Positions 1 through 60,000 of a DNA stretch of 64,000 nt are shown here, one piece after another (the first letter of the stretch is position 1; the number at the start of each line of letters is the position of its first letter). This stretch comes from an uncultured Gemmatimonadales bacterium (GTDB taxonomy: Bacteria; Gemmatimonadota; Gemmatimonadetes; Gemmatimonadales; GWC2-71-9). A program made the position numbers. Location of the stretch: NCBI GenBank assembly GCA_963828735.1, contig CAWHFW010000005.1, positions 2,464,001-2,528,000 of the forward strand. Reading direction: 5' to 3'.

Positions 1-3000
1 GCTTACCCGCTTGAAGCTATTCACGATTGCGCCTGAGGAGGCCCCCAATGTTCACCAGAATCCAGAGTCCTGCGTTTGCGGTGCTGAGCCTGGGGCTCGT
101 ATCCATCGGACACTCGCCGAATCGTCAGATTGTGACTCCGGCCGATACGGCAAGTCAGAATAACAAGATCGAGTTGTCCTATCATGTGAAGGCGATCAAG
201 CGCGACAGCTCGGGACAGTACACCATGTCGGGTACGGTGAATGGCGAGCGGCAGGGTAAGGCGACCCTCGTGTTCGGCTTCGACGAGGGGTCGTCCGGGC
301 AAGCCGGCAAGATACTGGTTCATTCGTACTGGGTAGTCACCGCGGTGCCGGCTTCAGAATCGTTCAAAGCAAAGTTGAGTGGAACCGCCGAGGCGGTCTC
401 GGGTCAGACCCACCTGGTCGGCAAGATCACCGAAGGCGCCAACAAGGGGCATCGGGTCGAGACCAGCAGCCGGCTGCTCAACTTCGGACCTAACCATTCG
501 CTCAGTGACATCGACGGCAACATGACTATTGACGGGAAGTAAGGGGTCGCAGAATGACCCCCATATCATGGGCTTTGCCGACAGGGCTGCCTCAGACAGC
601 GACAGGGGCCCCCGACGGTGCGGTGTCCCACCGGGCGCGATGTTCGTGCCCCGGCCGCCCACGTAGCCGAGCCAGATGTTGAGCATGCCGAGCGGCTCCA
701 GGTAGCGAGCGTTGGCGAGCGGGCCGCCATCCACCGGCTCGAACCCTATGCTCCCGGCCAGTCGGCGCACCGTATCCTTGGCGTCGGCTTCGTCGCCCGC
801 GTAGAAGACCTCTGACAAGAGATCGGCGCAAAGCCTCTCGGTTTGAGAGTGTGACAAACTCTAACATTTGAGTGAGTAAAGTACGGCAAAGTCCAGCATG
901 AAACCCAGCAAACTCCAGCATCGGGTGACACGAACTCGCGCAAATGACTGCAAGTTGCTGGAATTCGGCTGGTTCTGCGGGTCCCTCTGGATCAGGAGAG
1001 TCCTGGTTCGAGCCCAGGAGGGGCAATGAAGCCCGGCAACGACTTAGCCGTTGTCGGGCTTCGTCTATTTACCCGCCTGCCGTAGGTTCTCTGCTCTGCC
1101 TAGCCTACAATCCGCAGCTGTCTCGGAGCGTTCATCACCCGGAGCATCGACGCCTCATCGGTCTGCTGGTAGCACGTGAGACGGGTGTTGGTGTCTCTCC
1201 AACCCCCAGTTGCTTTCACGTCAACCAGTGGGAGATCCTTCCGCTCCCGTAACCCTTCCGCCGGAACGGATGCCAAGCACCTCCCTTCAGGTGTTCCAGA
1301 CCGGCTTTCTGTTCCGCCACGAGGAGTTGTTCTCCAAAGATCTCGCGGGGCCGGAGTCGCGTCAGAGTGTGGGAAAGATCGTGTGGGTGTGAGGTGCTCG
1401 TACACTCGCCCTGCCACACTCGCCCTGCCACTCCACGAGGTGGCGGCCGGGTTGCATGAGAACCTCGGCTGCGGTCGGAAACGGACTCCTATGGTGTACG
1501 CCGTCCCGAGGATCGTAAGAGCCTTGGCAGCCCTTTGCCGGGAGGCATGACCCCCGTCCGATTATCCTCCAGCTGCCCGCCGCAACTCCCGGGCGGCGAC
1601 AACTAAATCCAATGTCTGCACCCGCATCGTGCGACTCAGTTTCCAGTGCCAAGGCGAGCTTGCTCAATCCGGCGTGCGCCCGCACGATCTCAATCTCAGC
1701 GGCGGCCGCCAGGTCGGTGGCGCGGGTGATGGCGTCACGCACCGCGTGGTGGAGGTCGTCGGCGGTGAATGGTTTGAGTAGCACCCGGACGGGAGTGTCC
1801 GACGACTCGATATAGGGCACCGCGTCGGGATCGGCGGACATGCAGAGAAGGGCGACGCTCGGCCGATACCGTCTCAGCGTTTCGGAGACCTGACGCCCAT
1901 CAATTCGCGGCATCGAGAGGTCGGTCAGGACCAGATTGAACGGCTCGGTGCGCGCTTGAATGAGTCGCAGTGCGGACTCACCGTCCGGAGCCTCCTCGAC
2001 GTGAAAGCCTTCGGCTTCGAGCATGCGGCGGAGGATCCCGCGCACCGACAGGTCATCATCGACCACTAGCACGGTGGCTCCATACCAGATCGGACCGTGG
2101 GCCGTGGTAGGAACTTCGGCCATGTGGCATCTGCCGGGAGTGGGTTACCGGCGCGTGACTGGGCTACCTGATGCTAACGCCGTTCGAAGTGTTTGTCACG
2201 AAACCGAGCCGACCACGACGAGCCCAACCTGATCATCCAGCGTGCCGGCTAGCGCCAGTGCTTCTTCCTTGTCTCCAGCCGTGAACACGACGTAGCCGGA
2301 CTTCGCAAGCATCCTGGCCGTTTACGGCCGCCCCAGCCTCTTCCTGGGCGTTGAAAGGAAGGCCGTCTGCCTCGTCGTGTATCCGGTGGTGCACTTTCGA
2401 CTCTATGACCTGGTCGATCGTCATTTTCTCCCGTTCACGGGTAGGCAGCATGTTCGAGGTGCGTCTGCGCGAGCCCGGCGACTACCCTTCGTCAGCCATA
2501 CTTTCGCAGATGCCACCAAGGAGGCGGTCGGGGTGCTTCGCGTCCTCCCCCCGTGTCGCGGGACGGTGAGGGCCGATCGATGAAGGTCTACGATCCTGCG
2601 ATCGTCGCACGAGAGGCGTTTGCCGCGCACCCAGCGCGACCGGCCATGGCCGTCGTGCACGACGCACCGGACGCCCGGCTCGTCGTCTTCCGCCTCGCCG
2701 CGGGTCAAGCCGTCCCGGTACATACCTCCGTGTCCTCGGTGGTGCTCCACGTCCTCTCGGGGTCGGGGCTGGTGAGCAGCGCCGATGGCGAGCGTGATGT
2801 GCGCGCCGGCATGGTCGTTGCCTACGAGCCCCAGGAACCTCACGGGATGCGAGCGCTGGCCGAGTTGATCGTGCTCGCCGTCATCGCCCCTCGGCCGGCA
2901 AGCCGCCGAGGCCCTTTGGAGTAGCGCAGCTGGAATTTCCCAAGCGCTGGCCGTCTAGGCAGCCCAGGAGGGGCAATCAAGCCCGGCAACGACTTCGGTC

Positions 3001-57000: not shown

Positions 57001-60000
57001 CCAGCGTGCGGGTGACGGCGGCGCCGACCGCGCTCGGATCGGTGGTGGCGGTGGCCTTCCAGGGGCTGTCCTTCTTGGTCATCAGCTCGATGTCGGCGTT
57101 CGAGATGTCGATCCCATACGCGGCGACCTTCGATGCCCAGCTTGTTCTGTTCGATGGCTGAAACGGTGCCCTTGGTCAGCTCGTCGTAGGGAGCGAAGAC
57201 GGCCTTCACCCCGGGATGGGCCTTGAGCGCCTCGGCGGCGAGCCGCGCGTTGTCGGCCGCCACGGCGTGGCTGAACTTACCGACAGCGAACTTCTGGTCC
57301 CATTTGTGGTCGGCGACGAACTTCTTCCACACGACGTCGCGCCGCTCGAGCGGGGCGATGACGAACGGGTTCACATAGCCGACGGGGACACCGTCGCCGA
57401 TGTCCTTGGTCATCTGGGTGAGCACGAGGGTGGCGAGATCGGCGTCGTTCTGCGCGGTCTCGATGGCCTTGGGGGCACACTCGGCGACTTTGACGTCGTA
57501 CACCACGACGGCGATCCCGGCGTCGGTGGCCTGGTTGATCAGCGGGCACAGGGTGGCGGATCGACCATGGTCCACGATGATGCCGGCGACGCGGGACTCT
57601 ATCGCGGTTTTCATGTCGGCGGCCTGTCTGGCATCGTCGGCCCGCGCGTCGTAGAGCTGCATGCTGAAGCCGATCGCGTCGGCCTGCTGCTGTGGCGCCC
57701 TTGGTCCACAGCTCGAAGTAGTCACCGGCGCCGCTGTACTGGACCAGGGCGATCTTCACCGGCCCTTTGTCGAACGGACTCGGCTTCTCAGCCGTCGTCG
57801 GCAGCCGTATCGGTGCGAGCCGCACCCTGTTGATCGCGGTCGCGGTTCTGGGAGCAGGCCACGAGAAGGAGAGCAGTGCACAGCCCGAAGCTGGGAATCG
57901 TCTTGCTCCTCATTTGATCCCCCTTTCCGATGATCTGGGGTCTGGTGAGGCAAGAACTCGTAAGTCGCTGGCGGTCCAAACTACGACATCCGGAGCGAGT
58001 AAACCACGGCAGAGTCCCATAATCGGACCCGGCAAAGCCCAGCATCGGGGGAACGCCGAGACCGATCGGCTCGTTGTAGCTTCGCTATTGCAGCGGCGTC
58101 TCGCTCGTTCACTTGAGGAGTCCCCCGAAGCTGATGAACACGACGAATCGATTGCCCTCGAAGGTGGACCGGGCCCCCACGTCCCAGAGATACCGGGCCG
58201 TGATTGACCCGACGTAGGGCTCTTTGTACAGGCCGGTGTAGATCAGTTCCGGGCCCACGGTGTACAGGTGGTTCTTGCCGGGTGCCAGAGTAGCAGGGAA
58301 GTCGTTTCCACTATCCTCGCTGATCTTCCATTGACCTCCGTAAGCCACCCTGGCCTGGAGCTTGTCACCAAGGAGTTTCGCGCCCAACCCGCCCTCAACT
58401 GAGAGGATGTCCCCCGGCTTGAGGTCCTGGCCTTCCTTGTTGGTGTGGGTTTCGTAGGACACCAGCGCAGAAAGCTGATAGCGCTGGCCGGGGTCGAAGT
58501 AGAAGGTCGAGCCGCCGGACAGCTCGAAGGACCACATCCCAAGGCCCTTGTTCTCATTGCCGTTCGGTTCATAACTCCCGGTTGGAGCATAGAACCCGAA
58601 CCCGGCCATGTAGTCGGCCCGCGACGTGTGCCATCCCAGATTCACCGGCTGGACGTAGATGTCCGAAAGGCCGAGCGACGAGCTGGTAGCGAACCCGAGG
58701 CGGGGCACCTCCAGGGAGCTGGCGACCGCGGGCACGAGCAGCTGAAGTCCGTAGGTCCCGCCAAGCACCTTCCTGGGCGTCACGACCCAGGCGAAGAGCC
58801 CGAGCGAGCTCAGGGAAAGGTCGAAGGGCGTCGCGCTGCCATTGTGGTCTACGATGTTGTTTACGTCCCAATTCGCGTAGGTGAGTCCCAGAAGTACGGC
58901 CGGCGGTGGTTGGGTACCGGACTTGGAGCCCCAGGCCATCAAGGCGTGGGAGCCGGCGAGCTGCGCTTCCGACCGCCCGTGGCACAAGATGAGGAGAACG
59001 GCCATAGTGGCGCTGATACGCCGGCCCCGTCCCCGAAACCGACCCGACACTACGAAGGTCATGACCCTCTCGAAGTTGAGCTTTCCTTACGAGCTTGAAG
59101 CCCCCTTTCGACGCTTGCCAGTGCACCTTGGTTGATGTTTGAGTGGCTCCGTTTGAATGGCCCGCGCCAGGGTACTCCGTGGTTCTAAGATGGACTGCGG
59201 GTGGACAGGGAAGTTCGAGCGACTGAGTGGGAGATGCCCAGGTGACAAGCCTGGGCATCTCTTTCACCTGTCGGCCTCAGGCGTGAGCCCAGGAGGTCGA
59301 CTCGAAGGCTCGGTGGCGCTCACCGATGTCGGGCCCTCTGGTCTTCACGCCAGCCGCTGAAGTCCTGATGCTGCGGCGGCACCATCTAGCGCAGCGACCG
59401 GAGCCCGACGCGAATTTCTTCCGAAAGCAGTTTGGGCTGCTCCCACGCCGCGAAATGTCCGCCTTTGTCGAGCTTGTTGTAATGGATGAGCTTGGGGTAC
59501 GCCAGTTCGGTCCAACTCCGCGGAGCTGGATAGAGCTCGTCTGGAAAGACGCTCACGGCAACCGGGATGGAGACGCCTTTGGCATTGAAATACCCTTTGC
59601 CAAAATACTCCCAATAGAGACGGGCACCGGAGAGCGCCGTGTTCGTCAACCAGGTGATCGTGATGTTGTCGAGGATGTCGTCGCGCGTGAGGCCCTCCGG
59701 CTGTCCGTCAAAGACGCGCGCGATGAGCTCATAGCTGCGGGCGTCGTGATCAAGGAAATACGCCGCCAGGCCGACCGGTGAGTCCGCGATTCCGTATAAT
59801 GTTTGCGGTCGCAGACCCATCTGGAACCCGTAGGCGATTCCCTTTTGGTAAACGAACTGCAGACGGTCGTAGGCGAGCTTCTCGTCGGCTGAGAGCCCCG
59901 ATGGCGCCGGGGCGCCGGAAAAGGCCGCCCCATCAATGTCGGCTGGAAAGATGCCGGGCATGTTGCTGTGAATGCCGAGCAACTCCGGAGGCGCCTGCAA

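Follow-up and report, generated by a model that had tools for sequence, protein, structure and literature searches.

Organization of the array downstream of tRNA-Gln(CUG)

The window, i.e., the whole 64-kb stretch of DNA that was analyzed, contains no tRNA gene according to ARAGORN. The two tRNA genes that anchor the array lie outside it on the + strand of contig C5, with tRNA-Ala(CGC) at 2457616-2457690 and tRNA-Gln(CUG) at 2457709-2457781. The genome (G000) was searched with an nhmmer profile built from 10 copies of the repeat in the window (cut-off E ≤ 1e-3). This search returned 27 matches, every one on contig C5. Nineteen of them were located on the + strand downstream of the two tRNA genes (C5 2459361-2522051), 17 of these within the window. 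One further match was tRNA-Gln itself, and the remaining seven were found at other places on C5 (517 kb, 721 kb (two), 722 kb, 753 kb, 2538 kb, and 2564 kb). The initial annotation had given the same numbers, i.e., 27 matches with 19 in one orientation plus the tRNA. It had also ended the array at 2522051. Units do extend to this position, and degenerate units of the same orientation were found further on at C5:2538672-2538782 and C5:2564453-2564678. A pattern scan revealed two extra right-only fragments without an nhmmer match, ending at window positions 38392 and 50447.

The repeat unit (~250 nt) has three parts: an arm of ~150 nt, the 3' part of tRNA-Gln (its last 41-42 nt), and a hairpin terminator. 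The tRNA part, referred to as the core, extends from the anticodon loop CTCTGGA through the 3' end of the tRNA. The arm contains three direct iterons, one inverted iteron, and one 18-nt box. The inverted iteron is an addition of the present analysis to the earlier description of the arm; the cassette anatomy proposed in that description otherwise holds.

All units in the window are on the + strand and were detected by nhmmer, unless stated otherwise; coordinates are those of the window. R3 (831-1120; E 1e-80) closes the TetR-SDR cassette, which starts at contig position 2462331, and has iterons at 854, 886, and 908, a core at 985-1025, and a type-A terminator. A right-only fragment at 2961-3050 (nhmmer and pattern scan) retains the 3' part of the core to 2975, followed by a type-A terminator. 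R4 (4203-4508) has a 62-nt core with one 21-nt T-loop module. The cores of R5 (8832-9126; 41 nt, ending at 9024) and R6 (16127-16412; ending at 16315, with a type-B terminator) are perfect. Two units are truncated: R7 (21571-21725) has a full arm and a core that stops after CTCTGG, within the anticodon loop, and R8 (25540-25712) has the arm and 16 nt of the core start, a truncated form that is common to locus L064. R9 (28897-28979) is without an arm and consists of core and terminator only, with an iteron remnant at 28800. R10 (32041-32296) and R11 (33225-33534) have 62-nt cores, and the terminator of R11 is homologous to the native tRNA terminator, with a different stem. R12 (36245-36522) has an 87-nt core with two T-loop modules; its right flank is 96-100% identical to that in L057, where the core is without an insert. 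The fragment at 38376-38440 (right-only, pattern scan) starts from the T loop (CGAGCC...GGGGCA, ending at 38392) and continues into a hairpin. R13 (42794-43112) has a core of 83 nt, and R14 (44587-44895), R15 (46582-46891; three substitutions), and R16 (53657-53929) have cores of 86 nt. The right-only fragment at 50431-50447 (pattern scan) begins in the T loop and is considered a deletion derivative, because a full unit precedes its right-hand cargo in L035. In R17 (56551-56743), the arm is represented by its 3' part alone, and the degenerate core carries an insert of 45 nt. R18 (57977-58051), the last recognizable unit of the window, is an arm-only remnant.

Successive core ends are 1.2-7.3 kb apart, which gives the cassette sizes, and the cassettes carry 1-4 genes each, on both strands. 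Cargo was annotated by a Pfam scan of the 77 ORFs in C5:2452001-2532000. Between window positions 1 and 58051 it includes the end of an SDR gene, a 171-aa ORF, a response regulator, two cupins, Na/H and AI-2E transporters, DUF302, DUF488, ArsA, an Aldedh-like protein, two BTAD-TPR proteins, four Ser/Thr kinases, GH31, SnoaL, an MFS-Cache protein, ADH, a sigma/anti-sigma pair, an FkbM methyltransferase, PP2C, and a peroxiredoxin. None of the 29 unassigned ORFs matched PHROGs.

Conservation of the arm, core, and terminator

The iteron motif occurs 36 times in the window at ≤2 mismatches, compared with 2.97 occurrences expected, and none of 100 shuffles reached 36. The iteron spacing of 32 and 22 nt was reproduced, e.g., at window positions 854/886/908. 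In an alignment of 50 units, the 18-nt box is at least 90% conserved, and iteron 3 co-varies with the inverted iteron (A-T to G-C in 6/50 units). The arm is conserved between cassettes of unrelated cargo at >30 loci. The cores of the proximal units (R1-R3, R5, and R6) match the tRNA perfectly, whereas those distal to the tRNA have substitutions and truncations, with more degenerate units still farther downstream. A T-loop insert is present in nine units once R17 is included, and not in eight as initially counted. The inserts consist of mini-hairpins, and changes in one strand of their stems are perfectly compensated in the other (CACC/GGTG, GACC/GGTC, GGCC/GGCC, GGGC/GCCC, and CACG/CGTG). Individual genomes or arrays have their own insert types, and the insert state is linked to neither arm nor terminator.

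Several of these features could indicate that the unit is primarily an expressed or regulatory module, either a tRNA-like minihelix RNA or a terminator/insulator whose upstream region is bound by a protein, and that the spread of this module, rather than integration, would explain the repeats. In most units, the 5 nt upstream of the core together with its first two bases read GGCCCCT, which resembles the 5' acceptor strand of the tRNA and is able to pair with the 3' AGGGGC, so that the unit is like a tRNA-Gln from which the D arm and the 5' strand of the anticodon stem are missing. The compensated stems of the T-loop inserts, the different stems of homologous terminators, and the position of the arms, 11 of 17 of which abut the start of a minus-strand gene (tally from gene calls), also fit such a module. 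Nevertheless, we regard it as unlikely. The RNAalifold covariation term over 50 units was approximately zero (-0.01), and changes on both sides occurred in only one arm pair, which two sites bound by one protein explain equally well. No Rfam family reached the threshold on any unit, and no sigma-70-like promoter was found in the arms of the first 20 kb. An expressed module also leaves unexplained the anchoring at the tRNA and the exchange of whole cassettes with a switch of ancestry at the core, as described below.

Cassette exchange and the ancestry switch at the core

Related loci yielded 384 unit matches, 210 in genome loci (many of which overlap) and 174 in metagenome loci. The arm was present in 33 of 60 other genomes of the genus. 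All multi-unit loci had a single unit orientation (45/45 genome loci, overlapping ones included, and 38/38 metagenome loci), and locus comparisons showed relatives with the same anchor and different cassettes. The wide spread in the genus, the uniform direction, and the shared anchor noted in the initial annotation are therefore upheld.

The TetR-SDR cassette of G000 is 98.9% identical over 2734 nt to that of L048 (G181), while the upstream flank is only 67.5% identical. It is positioned directly after tRNA-Gln in L048 and third in G000; it is preceded by arm-bearing units in L058 and L031, and by core-only units in L060 and L076. Five more G000 cassettes are common to other loci at 93-97% identity. 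Overall, exchanged single cassettes are 93-99% identical, compared with 67-81% for their flanks. Judged by these comparisons, single cassettes are exchanged horizontally.

In all four informative pairs, identity shifts within ~50 nt of the core. Between R3 and its G181 counterpart, identity is 86-100% across the left cargo and arm, and 30-52% on the right side. In R12/L057, R8/L064, and R11/L073, identity is only 54-86% in the arm, compared with mostly 92-100% in the terminator and right cargo, with the exception of one window at 84% and one at 86%. The arm is thus inherited together with the cargo to its left, and the terminator together with the cargo to its right, the linkage that an attP of the form arm-core-terminator predicts. 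This switch fits the site-specific insertion claimed initially but does not prove it. No perfectly identical stretch is longer than the 41-nt core, so that crossovers by homologous recombination would fall there too, and the switch does not discriminate between mechanisms. Four mismatches between R3 and G181 are clustered in the 12 nt immediately 5' of the core, which is not expected from a crossover within the anticodon loop. In addition, units with right flanks that are 96-100% identical can have different T-loop insert states, which a simple one-crossover model does not explain.

Homologous recombination alone is a rival explanation. There may be no dedicated recombinase today, and the units may be old integration scars that now serve only as portable homology. 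Uptake of foreign array DNA would be followed by RecA-type recombination and gene conversion between units, through which cassettes would be swapped, lost, inverted, and duplicated. This process would also place crossovers at the core, and genome- or array-specific T-loop inserts that are unlinked to their flanks fit gene conversion between neighboring units. Deletion derivatives of units exist, one inversion in L068 has a breakpoint close to a core, and an SDR gene at C5:721-722 kb is flanked by inverted units. We consider this explanation possible but doubtful. It does not account for the 150-nt arm, with four phased iterons and its conserved 18-nt box, on every cassette across genera and unrelated cargo. 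Moreover, insertion of a new cassette beside the tRNA, as in L048, could draw on no more than 41 nt of homology at its tRNA end.

Search for a recombinase

The Pfam scan detected a recombinase in none of the 77 ORFs of the array region (C5:2452001-2532000). No integrase was found among 119 representative ORFs of 37 related loci, and six-frame searches of 77 related genome loci with a local integrase HMM, which recovers eight integrase places in G000, gave no match. Among 122 metagenome loci, a single integrase match was found beside units (L171). This integrase belongs to a family that targets other tRNAs, and a tRNA-Ile(GAU)-like sequence lies at a distance of 126 nt from the stop codon of its gene; it is therefore probably a passenger. 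Among the 150 of 242 matches listed for 60 genomes of the genus, no integrase shared a contig with tRNA-Gln. A cognate tRNA-Gln integrase was thus found neither in G000 nor in the related genome and metagenome loci searched. The array is integrase-less in cis, in agreement with the initial annotation, and the cassettes look natively so.

These results bear in two ways on the scar explanation. It gains from the failure to find an integrase in cis, or in trans in G000 and G184, and from a genome with many decayed islands and broken integrases. However, decayed integrase-bearing islands should keep some integrase remnants, whereas the 384 unit matches came with one integrase that has a foreign att site.

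The host XerC/XerD pair could also be the recombinase, as in dif-exploiting elements or the dif modules of Acinetobacter plasmids. In G000 (97.5% complete), the only intact PF00589 genes are two that appear XerC/XerD-like from a reading of their C-terminal motifs; the other recombinase traces are fragments adjoining other tRNAs and a single small resolvase. G184, a genome with a unit, likewise has only two PF00589 matches, again the XerC/XerD-like genes, and almost every genome of the genus has both types. The Xer pair is, however, also present in arm-negative genomes, and by eye the unit seems to be without a dif-like 28-bp site (two 11-bp arms with a 6-8-bp spacer). Xer systems are not known to use multi-iteron arms of this kind. 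We therefore consider their involvement highly unlikely.

Islands at other tRNA genes and a proposed model of the array

Eleven other tRNA genes of G000 have 12 downstream copies of their 3' part. Those that were read (Ile, both Lys, Met, Asn, and Phe) also start at the anticodon loop. Short direct 8-10-mer repeats are located 100-180 nt upstream of 8 of the 12 copies, and several copies lie near degraded integrases. The ordinary tRNA islands of this genome show the same grammar as the array.

The explanation that we favor, with reservations, is an accretion array of natively integrase-less cassettes, each with an attP-like site, served by a putative tRNA-Gln integrase in trans. Small cassettes would have been inserted successively, with the tRNA-Gln(CUG) gene or the copies of it within the array as targets. 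The circular cassette would carry an attP-like site of ~250 bp, consisting of a P arm (four arm-type sites, three direct and one inverted, plus the 18-nt box), the 3' half of tRNA-Gln as the core, and a tRNA terminator that belongs to the cassette. A crossover in this core would rebuild the tRNA from the copy of the cassette, and the cassette arm would then be fused to the displaced old 3' half, giving the repeat at each border. The reaction may be a tyrosine-type site-specific recombination with a crossover near the anticodon loop, catalyzed by the enzyme of a helper that would be absent from these genomes. In existing arrays, homologous recombination and gene conversion between units would reshuffle and erode them. 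Accretion is supported by the reproduced anatomy, cassette exchange, linkage at the core, the same grammar at other tRNA islands, the conserved arm, the perfect proximal and degraded distal cores, and the natively integrase-less look. It is weakened by the failure to find a cognate integrase, the R3/G181 mismatch cluster, and the unlinked T-loop inserts. The array can be viewed as a store of ~20 small gene packets in a soil bacterium, and individual packets occur in distant relatives as well.

Comparison with known systems

The array resembles the tRNA-gene islands of tyrosine integrases (Islander/TIGER type, including tandem arrays) in its tRNA gene target, the displaced 3' fragment at the far end, the restoration of the tRNA by the element, and the displacement of older insertions away from the tRNA by later ones. 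The block of identity also begins at the anticodon loop, reportedly one sublocation class of Williams 2002. Those islands are defined by carrying an integrase, whereas the array has ~20 cassettes of 1-7 kb without any and with one conserved arm. CIMEs, known from ICE attachment-site accretion in streptococci, are att-bounded, tandem, without recombination genes, and thought to depend on the integrase of a related element. The array is likewise integrase-less, tandem, and bounded by att-like sites, and its cassettes may likewise depend on such an integrase. However, CIMEs are one or two deletion derivatives beside a known ICE with a known integrase, whereas here ~20 cassettes per array recur in dozens of genomes with no known parent element.

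Islands at the ssrA (tmRNA) gene of Dehalococcoides reportedly encode their own ssrA-specific integrases, unlike the array. Several such islands are reported in tandem at this single small-RNA gene, where repeats of the 3' end of the gene are also present, an arrangement like that of the array (PMC3146451). The tycheposon islands of Prochlorococcus, as far as the parts of their descriptions considered go, also adjoin tRNA genes and carry adaptive accessory cargo. They have integrase and replication hallmark genes, and fragmented integrases occur among their remnants, none of which were seen in the array, while a conserved 150-nt iteron arm on every cassette does not appear in those parts. The label of tycheposon satellite, which the initial annotation had suggested as a likeness, was rejected on the hallmark genes. 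Integrons share with the array small, singly exchangeable cassettes at one chromosomal site, each with its own recombination site (putative here). The array differs in having no adjoining intI and no attC-type imperfect palindrome, in its genes on both strands, many with room for their own promoters, and in its tRNA gene anchor. Without intI and attC, and with mixed gene orientation, it is not a member of the integrons; "integron-like" is nevertheless apt as a description of how it may work.

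Anchor and extent of the repeat array

Within the 64-kb window, no tRNA genes were found by ARAGORN. The anchor of the array lies ~6.2 kb 5' of it on the + strand of contig CAWHFW010000005.1 (C5), where tRNA-Ala(CGC) (C5:2457616-2457690) is followed by tRNA-Gln(CUG) (C5:2457709-2457781). Repeat detection in the window gave one family with 10-14 copies. An nhmmer profile trained on ten of the window copies was run against the 4.78-Mb assembly and produced 27 matches, every one on C5: 19 on the + strand at 2459361-2522051, the tRNA itself, and seven at other places. The counts of the initial annotation (27 matches, 19 in the array, and the tRNA) were thereby reproduced. 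The window holds 17 of the 19 array matches, and a pattern scan revealed two further short right-only fragments there.

The existence of the array is far beyond chance, but its extent, previously given as C5:2457709 to 2522051, had to be revised, as degenerate units in the array orientation continue past this end. They are located at C5:2538672-2538782 and C5:2564453-2564678 (L002 and L003), 17 kb and 42 kb farther on, respectively, and because of them the island may span ~107 kb from the tRNA. The island has no defined far border, because the gene that follows the 2564-kb unit also counts as accessory (present in 7 of the 60 genus genomes). The array has the feature of an islander-type element, with an intact tRNA-Gln at one end and 41-42-nt copies of its 3' part as direct repeats in the same orientation. 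Two long 'tRNA-Gln(ctg)' calls by ARAGORN, C4:85199 and C5:1368399, were discarded, as they fall into coding-like sequence and have no relation to the repeat.

Build of the repeat unit

The layout of the unit, i.e., the repeat that closes each cassette, was derived from two alignments, one of 16 units of the genome studied and one of 50 insert-free units out of 30-odd loci, and was identical in both. The unit begins with three direct iterons (consensus GCAAACTCCAGCAT) at a spacing of 32 and 22 nt. Iterons with <=2 mismatches occur 36 times in the window compared to 2.97 expected, which is 12 times the chance rate and was reached by 0 of 100 shuffles; they lie ~60-130 nt 5' of the core. The iterons are followed by an 18-nt box GGGTGACACGAACTCGCG with a conservation of >=90%, and by a short palindrome GCAAGTTGC leading into a fourth, inverted iteron TTGCTGGAGTTTGG. 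This inverted iteron, which adds to the initial description, co-varies with iteron 3 (A-T to G-C in 6 of 50 units). After ~15 variable bases, GGCCC precedes the core, in which tRNA-Gln is copied over 41-42 nt, from CTCTGGA of the anticodon loop through the 3' end. The unit closes with a hairpin terminator of one of several types, after which CCTATTTG-like bases often come. The terminators of the native tRNA and of units R11 and R14 (numbered R1-R18 along the array) are homologous, yet their stems differ, and each is internally complementary.

Judged from its sequence, the unit has the build of a putative attP/attR site of a heterobivalent tyrosine integrase, on the anticodon-loop side of tRNA-Gln. 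The attP of such an integrase combines an attB-identical core with distant arm-type repeats, and both features are present in the unit. Perfect cores were found in R1-R3, R5, and R6, the units closest to the tRNA, and substitutions in the cores of R15-R17. R7 is broken inside the anticodon loop, R8 after 16 nt of the core, R9 has no arm, and R18 is an arm only. Three fragments, with ends at window positions 2975, 38392, and 50447, retain only the T loop onward. The last of these represents a deletion product, because a full unit precedes its right-hand cargo in locus L035.

The GGCCC and CT before the core resemble the 5' acceptor strand of the tRNA, and base pairing with the 3' end is possible, so that the unit on paper is a tRNA-Gln without the D arm and the 5' anticodon stem. 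This pairing would fit an RNA or regulatory role as the primary function of the unit. We consider such a role improbable and the evidence for it thin: the covariation term of RNAalifold was -0.01 for 50 units, the arms of the first 20 kb contain no promoter-like site, and no Rfam family reached threshold on any unit.

Single cassettes are exchanged, with a switch of ancestry at the core

The array was compared with related loci by BLAST. The TetR-SDR cassette, which is closed by R3, is 98.9% identical over 2734 nt to locus L048 of genome G181, and the sole alignable gene of the upstream flanks of the two genomes is 67.5% identical. This cassette lies directly behind tRNA-Gln in G181 and third in the genome studied. 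It was also found at 82-89% identity in four further loci, following arm-bearing units in two of them (L058 and L031) and core-only units in the other two (L060 and L076). Further segments shared at 93-97% identity are window positions 25561-28799 (with L064), 33239-34190 (L073), 36256-38374 (L056/L057), 39278-40304 (L060 and L050), and 50446-50994 (L049, L087, L035, and L084). The neighbours of shared cassettes vary from genome to genome. As these alignments indicate, the unit of exchange is the cassette and not the array, and single cassettes have apparently been exchanged recently between distant relatives.

Identity was then profiled in 50-nt steps across four junctions with one side shared. 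At R3 (window 831-1120), where the left side is shared with G181, the cargo is 96-100% identical, the arm 96/100/86%, the core 98%, and the sequence beyond 30-52%. At R12/L057, R8/L064, and R11/L073, where the right side is shared, the left cargo is unrelated, and the arm is 54-86% identical, the usual level between any two units. From the terminator on, identity at these three junctions is mostly 92-100%, with one profile window each at 84% and 86%. According to the profiles at the four junctions, the arm goes with the left cargo and the terminator with the right cargo. A circular cassette with an arm-core-terminator site that inserts at the core would predict exactly this arm-left, terminator-right linkage.

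A purely homologous mechanism acting on dead att sites would place crossovers at the core as well, because there is no other long stretch of perfect identity. In G181, the homology at the left end of the TetR-SDR cassette begins exactly at CTCTGGA; this start is forced, as the tRNA and the unit share nothing further left. Moreover, four mismatches between R3 and G181 are clustered in the 12 nt before the core, and this cluster looks more like a conversion patch than a clean anticodon-loop exchange. We regard homologous recombination alone as a possible but doubtful explanation. Our somewhat favoured reading is serial site-specific insertion, in which natively integrase-less cassettes would have been inserted one after another at the tRNA-Gln site by a helper enzyme acting in trans, and homologous reshuffling and decay would have set in after insertion.

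Modular inserts in the T loop of the core

Inserts between GGTT and CGAGCC of the T loop were found in 24 of 76 distinct full units, with sizes of +21 (5 units), +24 (7), +42 to +48 (10), and +66/68 (2). In the metagenome loci, 33 of 96 cores exceeded 41 nt. An insert consists of one to three modules, each of them a mini-hairpin with a 4-bp stem and a 3-6-nt loop, then GCCTTCGGCT or GCCTGCGGCT. The stems have five sequences, each perfectly self-complementary, and the GCCTTCGGCTCGAGC string of the modules is also present after one terminator type. Insert types are specific to a genome or array, with one type in six consecutive distal units of the genome studied and another shared by three units of genome G180. 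The nearest neighbour of an insert-bearing unit bears an insert in 3 of 24 cases when chosen by arm and in 6 of 24 when chosen by terminator, at a base rate of 0.31; insert state follows neither arm nor terminator. Gain or loss of inserts is recent, because the right flanks of R12 (window 36245-36522; 87-nt core) and L057 (41-nt core) are 96-100% identical. Gene conversion between neighbouring cores would explain the clustering of inserts. Logan contigs from four runs on window positions 38400-58300 are short and of low depth, and their joints have ~20-nt sides or skip T-loop inserts, the latter coming from contigs with insert-free cores. These joints do not count as signs of excision or rearrangement.

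Distribution among relatives

Related loci are carried by Gemmatimonadales/Gemmatimonadota MAGs, and a few contigs binned to other taxa (L019, L068, and L080) may be binning errors. The arm alone (E<=1e-6) was found in 33 of 60 other genus genomes (31 of 58 without the unpublished G123 and G167, both positive), in agreement with the earlier statement that the array is widespread in soil members of the genus. At the family level, with six candidates scored per genome, arm-bearing matches were obtained in 10 of 120 genomes, from genus g1 and eight other genera. A scan of genome contigs returned at least 130 stretches, and the repeat profile confirmed units in at least 77 loci, many of them overlapping; for metagenome contigs, these values were at least 129 stretches and 114 of the 122 loci examined. 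Wherever a locus had two or more matches, its units were on one strand (45 of 45 genome and 38 of 38 metagenome loci). Among the sequencing runs listed as containing array sequence, 20 were DNA runs of five studies, from rhizosphere or soil, and none was an RNA run, which has no bearing on expression. BLAST of the unit against phage and plasmid collections returned phage tRNA-Gln genes only. Among viral contigs, an exact 19-mer had 0 matches and a looser pattern 5, none of which was confirmed by the repeat profile. In genome G285, a lone full unit (L316:8202-8725, on its contig C1) lies 220 nt upstream of tRNA-Ala(CGC) with no tRNA-Gln after it, which suggests a rearrangement at the anchor. 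No description of such an array was found in the open-access literature searched.

Search for a recombinase

The initial annotation had described the array as free of an integrase, and this held in wider searches. There was no intI-type gene, as none of the 77 ORFs in C5:2452001-2532000 matched PF00589 and all PF00589 places of the genome lie outside this region. A local integrase profile, which recovers eight integrase places in the genome studied, gave 0 matches in the six-frame translation of 77 genome loci. From 37 non-redundant loci of relatives, 270 ORFs of >=170 aa were collected, 89 of which resembled already scanned proteins of the genome studied and were set aside. The rest were reduced to 166 representatives, and Pfam detected no recombinase among the 119 of them with 225-700 aa; one ORF had HTH_21.

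The genome has nine PF00589 places. The two intact ones (C1:93398 and C5:1107587) look XerD/XerC-like, with their C-terminal sequences judged by eye, and the others are short or frameshifted and lie beside other tRNAs. One small resolvase is also encoded, without homologues in any related locus, and rve and Y1 transposase families are absent from the genome. Five large array-bearing genomes have two Xer-like genes each and a few others, and G184 has only the two. That the XerC/XerD pair performs the reaction seems very unlikely to us. When the unit was inspected by eye, it showed no dif-like 28-bp XerC/XerD site of the kind that borders Xer-dependent elements (IMEX or dif modules).

The 60 genus genomes have 242 PF00589 matches; among the 150 listed, none was on a tRNA-Gln contig, and one was on an arm contig, 95 kb from the arm. 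In G180 and G181 (contig numbers matched provisionally), the listed integrase matches are ~1 Mb away from the array. A third class of PF00589 matches (~600 nt, E about 1e-35) recurs in many genus genomes and is absent from the genome studied.

In 122 metagenome loci, the local profile detected one ORF, L171:849-1553 (-), a true Phage_integrase (46 bits) that lies to the right of a unit at a distance of 587 nt. It was rejected as the missing helper, because it is probably a passenger with its own site: its family lies beside non-Gln tRNAs, and a tRNA-Ile(GAU)-like sequence is adjacent. Members of this integrase family were detected in 32 of the 102 genomes at genus level and in 56 of the 400 at family level. 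In the loci retrieved, they are always beside Val, Arg, Ile, Gly, Ala, Thr, Pro, or Met tRNAs and never Gln, with the stop codon 4-170 nt from the tRNA in most cases, and the fragment of this family in the genome studied abuts a tRNA-Ile 3' fragment. In L171, the degenerate tRNA-Ile(GAU)-like sequence (L171:656-723; Rfam tRNA 25 bits, below the gathering score) is 126 nt from the stop codon. The cassette right of this unit contains both a convergent tyrosine integrase and the tRNA-Ile(GAU)-like sequence, and an integrative element of other specificity appears to be carried there as cargo. No relative of the L171 integrase was found in viral contigs.

A fragment of another integrase, located at C5:755 kb next to a lone Gln-type core, was also rejected, as its family targets Lys, Cys, Ser, and Leu tRNAs; 25 loci of this family contained no units. 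In both of these integrase families, a convergent tyrosine-recombinase gene follows the tRNA at a distance of up to ~200 nt. An autonomous relative with a cognate integrase at the same att was found neither among the matches listed for the 60 and 102 genus genomes, nor in the best 30 loci of the 400 family genomes, nor in the 77 genome loci, the 122 metagenome loci, and the phage, plasmid, and viral-contig collections.

Other tRNA islets and stray units

The last 26 nt of 53 tRNA genes were searched against the rest of the genome. Eleven non-Gln tRNAs have 12 downstream copies of their 3' ends on the same strand (tRNA-Phe has two in tandem), which delimit islets of 1.3-37 kb. Where inspected (Ile, both Lys, Met, Asn, and Phe), the shared block begins at the anticodon loop, and two short direct repeats lie 100-180 nt upstream of 8 of the 12 copies. 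With this common block start and these upstream repeats, the Gln unit conforms to the grammar that tyrosine-integrase attR sites have in this genome. Several islets have degraded integrases nearby, and in most the integrase is broken or lacking; small integrase-poor tRNA islets are general in this genome. The box and iterons of the Gln arm were in none of the 12 copies, and the Gln array differs from these islets in its number of cassettes, in having one conserved arm throughout, and in being entirely free of integrase remains.

Gln-type cores or units were also found inside two tRNA-Lys islands, just downstream of tRNA-Lys(UUU) (C5:753608-753698, -) and tRNA-Lys(CUU) (C5:517229-517393, -). 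The 753-kb copy retains a longer part of the anticodon stem and resembles a tRNA-Gln pseudogene. Near the distal repeat of the 33-kb tRNA-Lys(UUU) island, a lone SDR gene lies between two inverted units plus an inverted arm fragment (L005:9329-10710, i.e., C5:721329-722710). Parts of the array have evidently spread to other places in the genome. The assembly has two tmRNA genes with different tags (C4:172777-173139 and C5:2756475-2756829), and it may include contigs of a second organism, given its contamination estimate of 5.17%; all units are on C5, the contig of the array.

Cargo of the cassettes

The 77 ORFs of C5:2452001-2532000 were called by a GC3-based caller written for this analysis and scanned against Pfam. 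The genes of the cassettes are of an ordinary accessory kind and occupy both strands, inside a cassette as well as from one cassette to the next: Kelch proteins, TetR with SDR, a response regulator, two cupins, transporters, ArsA, two BTAD-TPR proteins, four Ser/Thr kinases with TPR or PD40 repeats, GH31, SnoaL, an MFS-Cache protein, ADH, a sigma/anti-sigma pair, an FkbM methyltransferase, PP2C, and a peroxiredoxin. No recombinase, transposase, relaxase, or phage protein was identified among these ORFs, and the 29 left unassigned by Pfam had no PHROGs match. A cupin gene and its upstream region are duplicated in two different cassettes (window 2560-2964 and 10376-10783, 93-94% identity). Just past the last unit, an epoxide-hydrolase-like gene (window 59386-60699, -) is directly preceded by a c-di-GMP-I riboswitch (60696-60812, -; Rfam 41.8 bits, above the gathering score). 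This stretch may be one more cassette, because a homologous stretch sits between two units in L057.

The four Ser/Thr kinase genes start beside arms (window 22661-25630, 25728-28622, 33482-36301, and 43646-44473, all -). Similar kinases represent the commonest cargo in the loci of relatives, where 48 of 270 ORFs match one of three kinases of the genome studied; these loci also carry Fic, BrnT/BrnA, HNH, an ImpB-type polymerase, and a methylase-like protein. The kinases match the PADLOC PD-T4-6 models at E about 1e-90. We take this match as a lead on a defence role rather than as evidence for it, because the models are essentially kinase domains that any Hanks-type kinase might match. The wealth of sensor-repeat Ser/Thr kinases, regulators, transporters, and toxin-antitoxin or Fic genes suggests a cassette store used for environmental sensing and perhaps for defence.

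Comparison with known systems

Integrons have intI beside the array, whereas none is present at the Gln array. Their attC sites are imperfect palindromes, whereas the Gln boundaries, judged from their layout, consist of the arm, the tRNA-Gln 3' half, and the terminator. Integron cassettes are mostly co-oriented and promoterless, whereas Gln cassette genes lie on both strands. The definition of Islander/TIGER-type islands requires an integrase gene inside (PMC12424338); none was found in the Gln array, the ORFs of relatives, or the 77 genome loci. The tycheposon hallmark, an integrase with a primase/helicase, was absent from the 77 ORFs (Pfam) and the 29 ORFs (PHROGs). Like a CIME, which has att on both sides and no recombination or transfer genes, a Gln cassette lies between two cores and has no recombinase, relaxase, or phage family; CIMEs, however, have a related autonomous element with a cognate integrase at the same att, and none was found for the Gln cassettes. 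The array, initially labelled integron-like or tycheposon-satellite-like, may work like an integron or a CIME array, but the lack of an integrase places it outside integrons, tycheposons, and Islander-type islands.

A bolder reading, which we put forward tentatively, is that the array represents a chromosomal gene-capture platform of Gemmatimonadales, integron-like in function but of a different build, with tRNA-Gln as the dock, a 250-bp composite site per cassette, and a purely trans-acting recombinase. This recombinase would be an unrecognised enzyme or XerC/XerD, because near-complete carriers encode no other intact tyrosine recombinase. The composite site would be made up of four arm sites, the tRNA half, and a tRNA terminator belonging to the cassette, and the compensated T-loop hairpins would point to a folded single-strand substrate, by analogy with attC.

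Such arrays escape island finders that depend on an integrase or on a minimum size, and current catalogues may therefore miss how much of the flexible genome is organised in this abundant, little-studied soil phylum. If homologous recombination alone is responsible, the array shows how dead att sites keep structuring gene exchange. If a trans recombinase serves all cassettes, the array would offer a ready-made, well-conserved composite site for experiments and tool building, and would be a second, independently evolved cassette-store design beside integrons.
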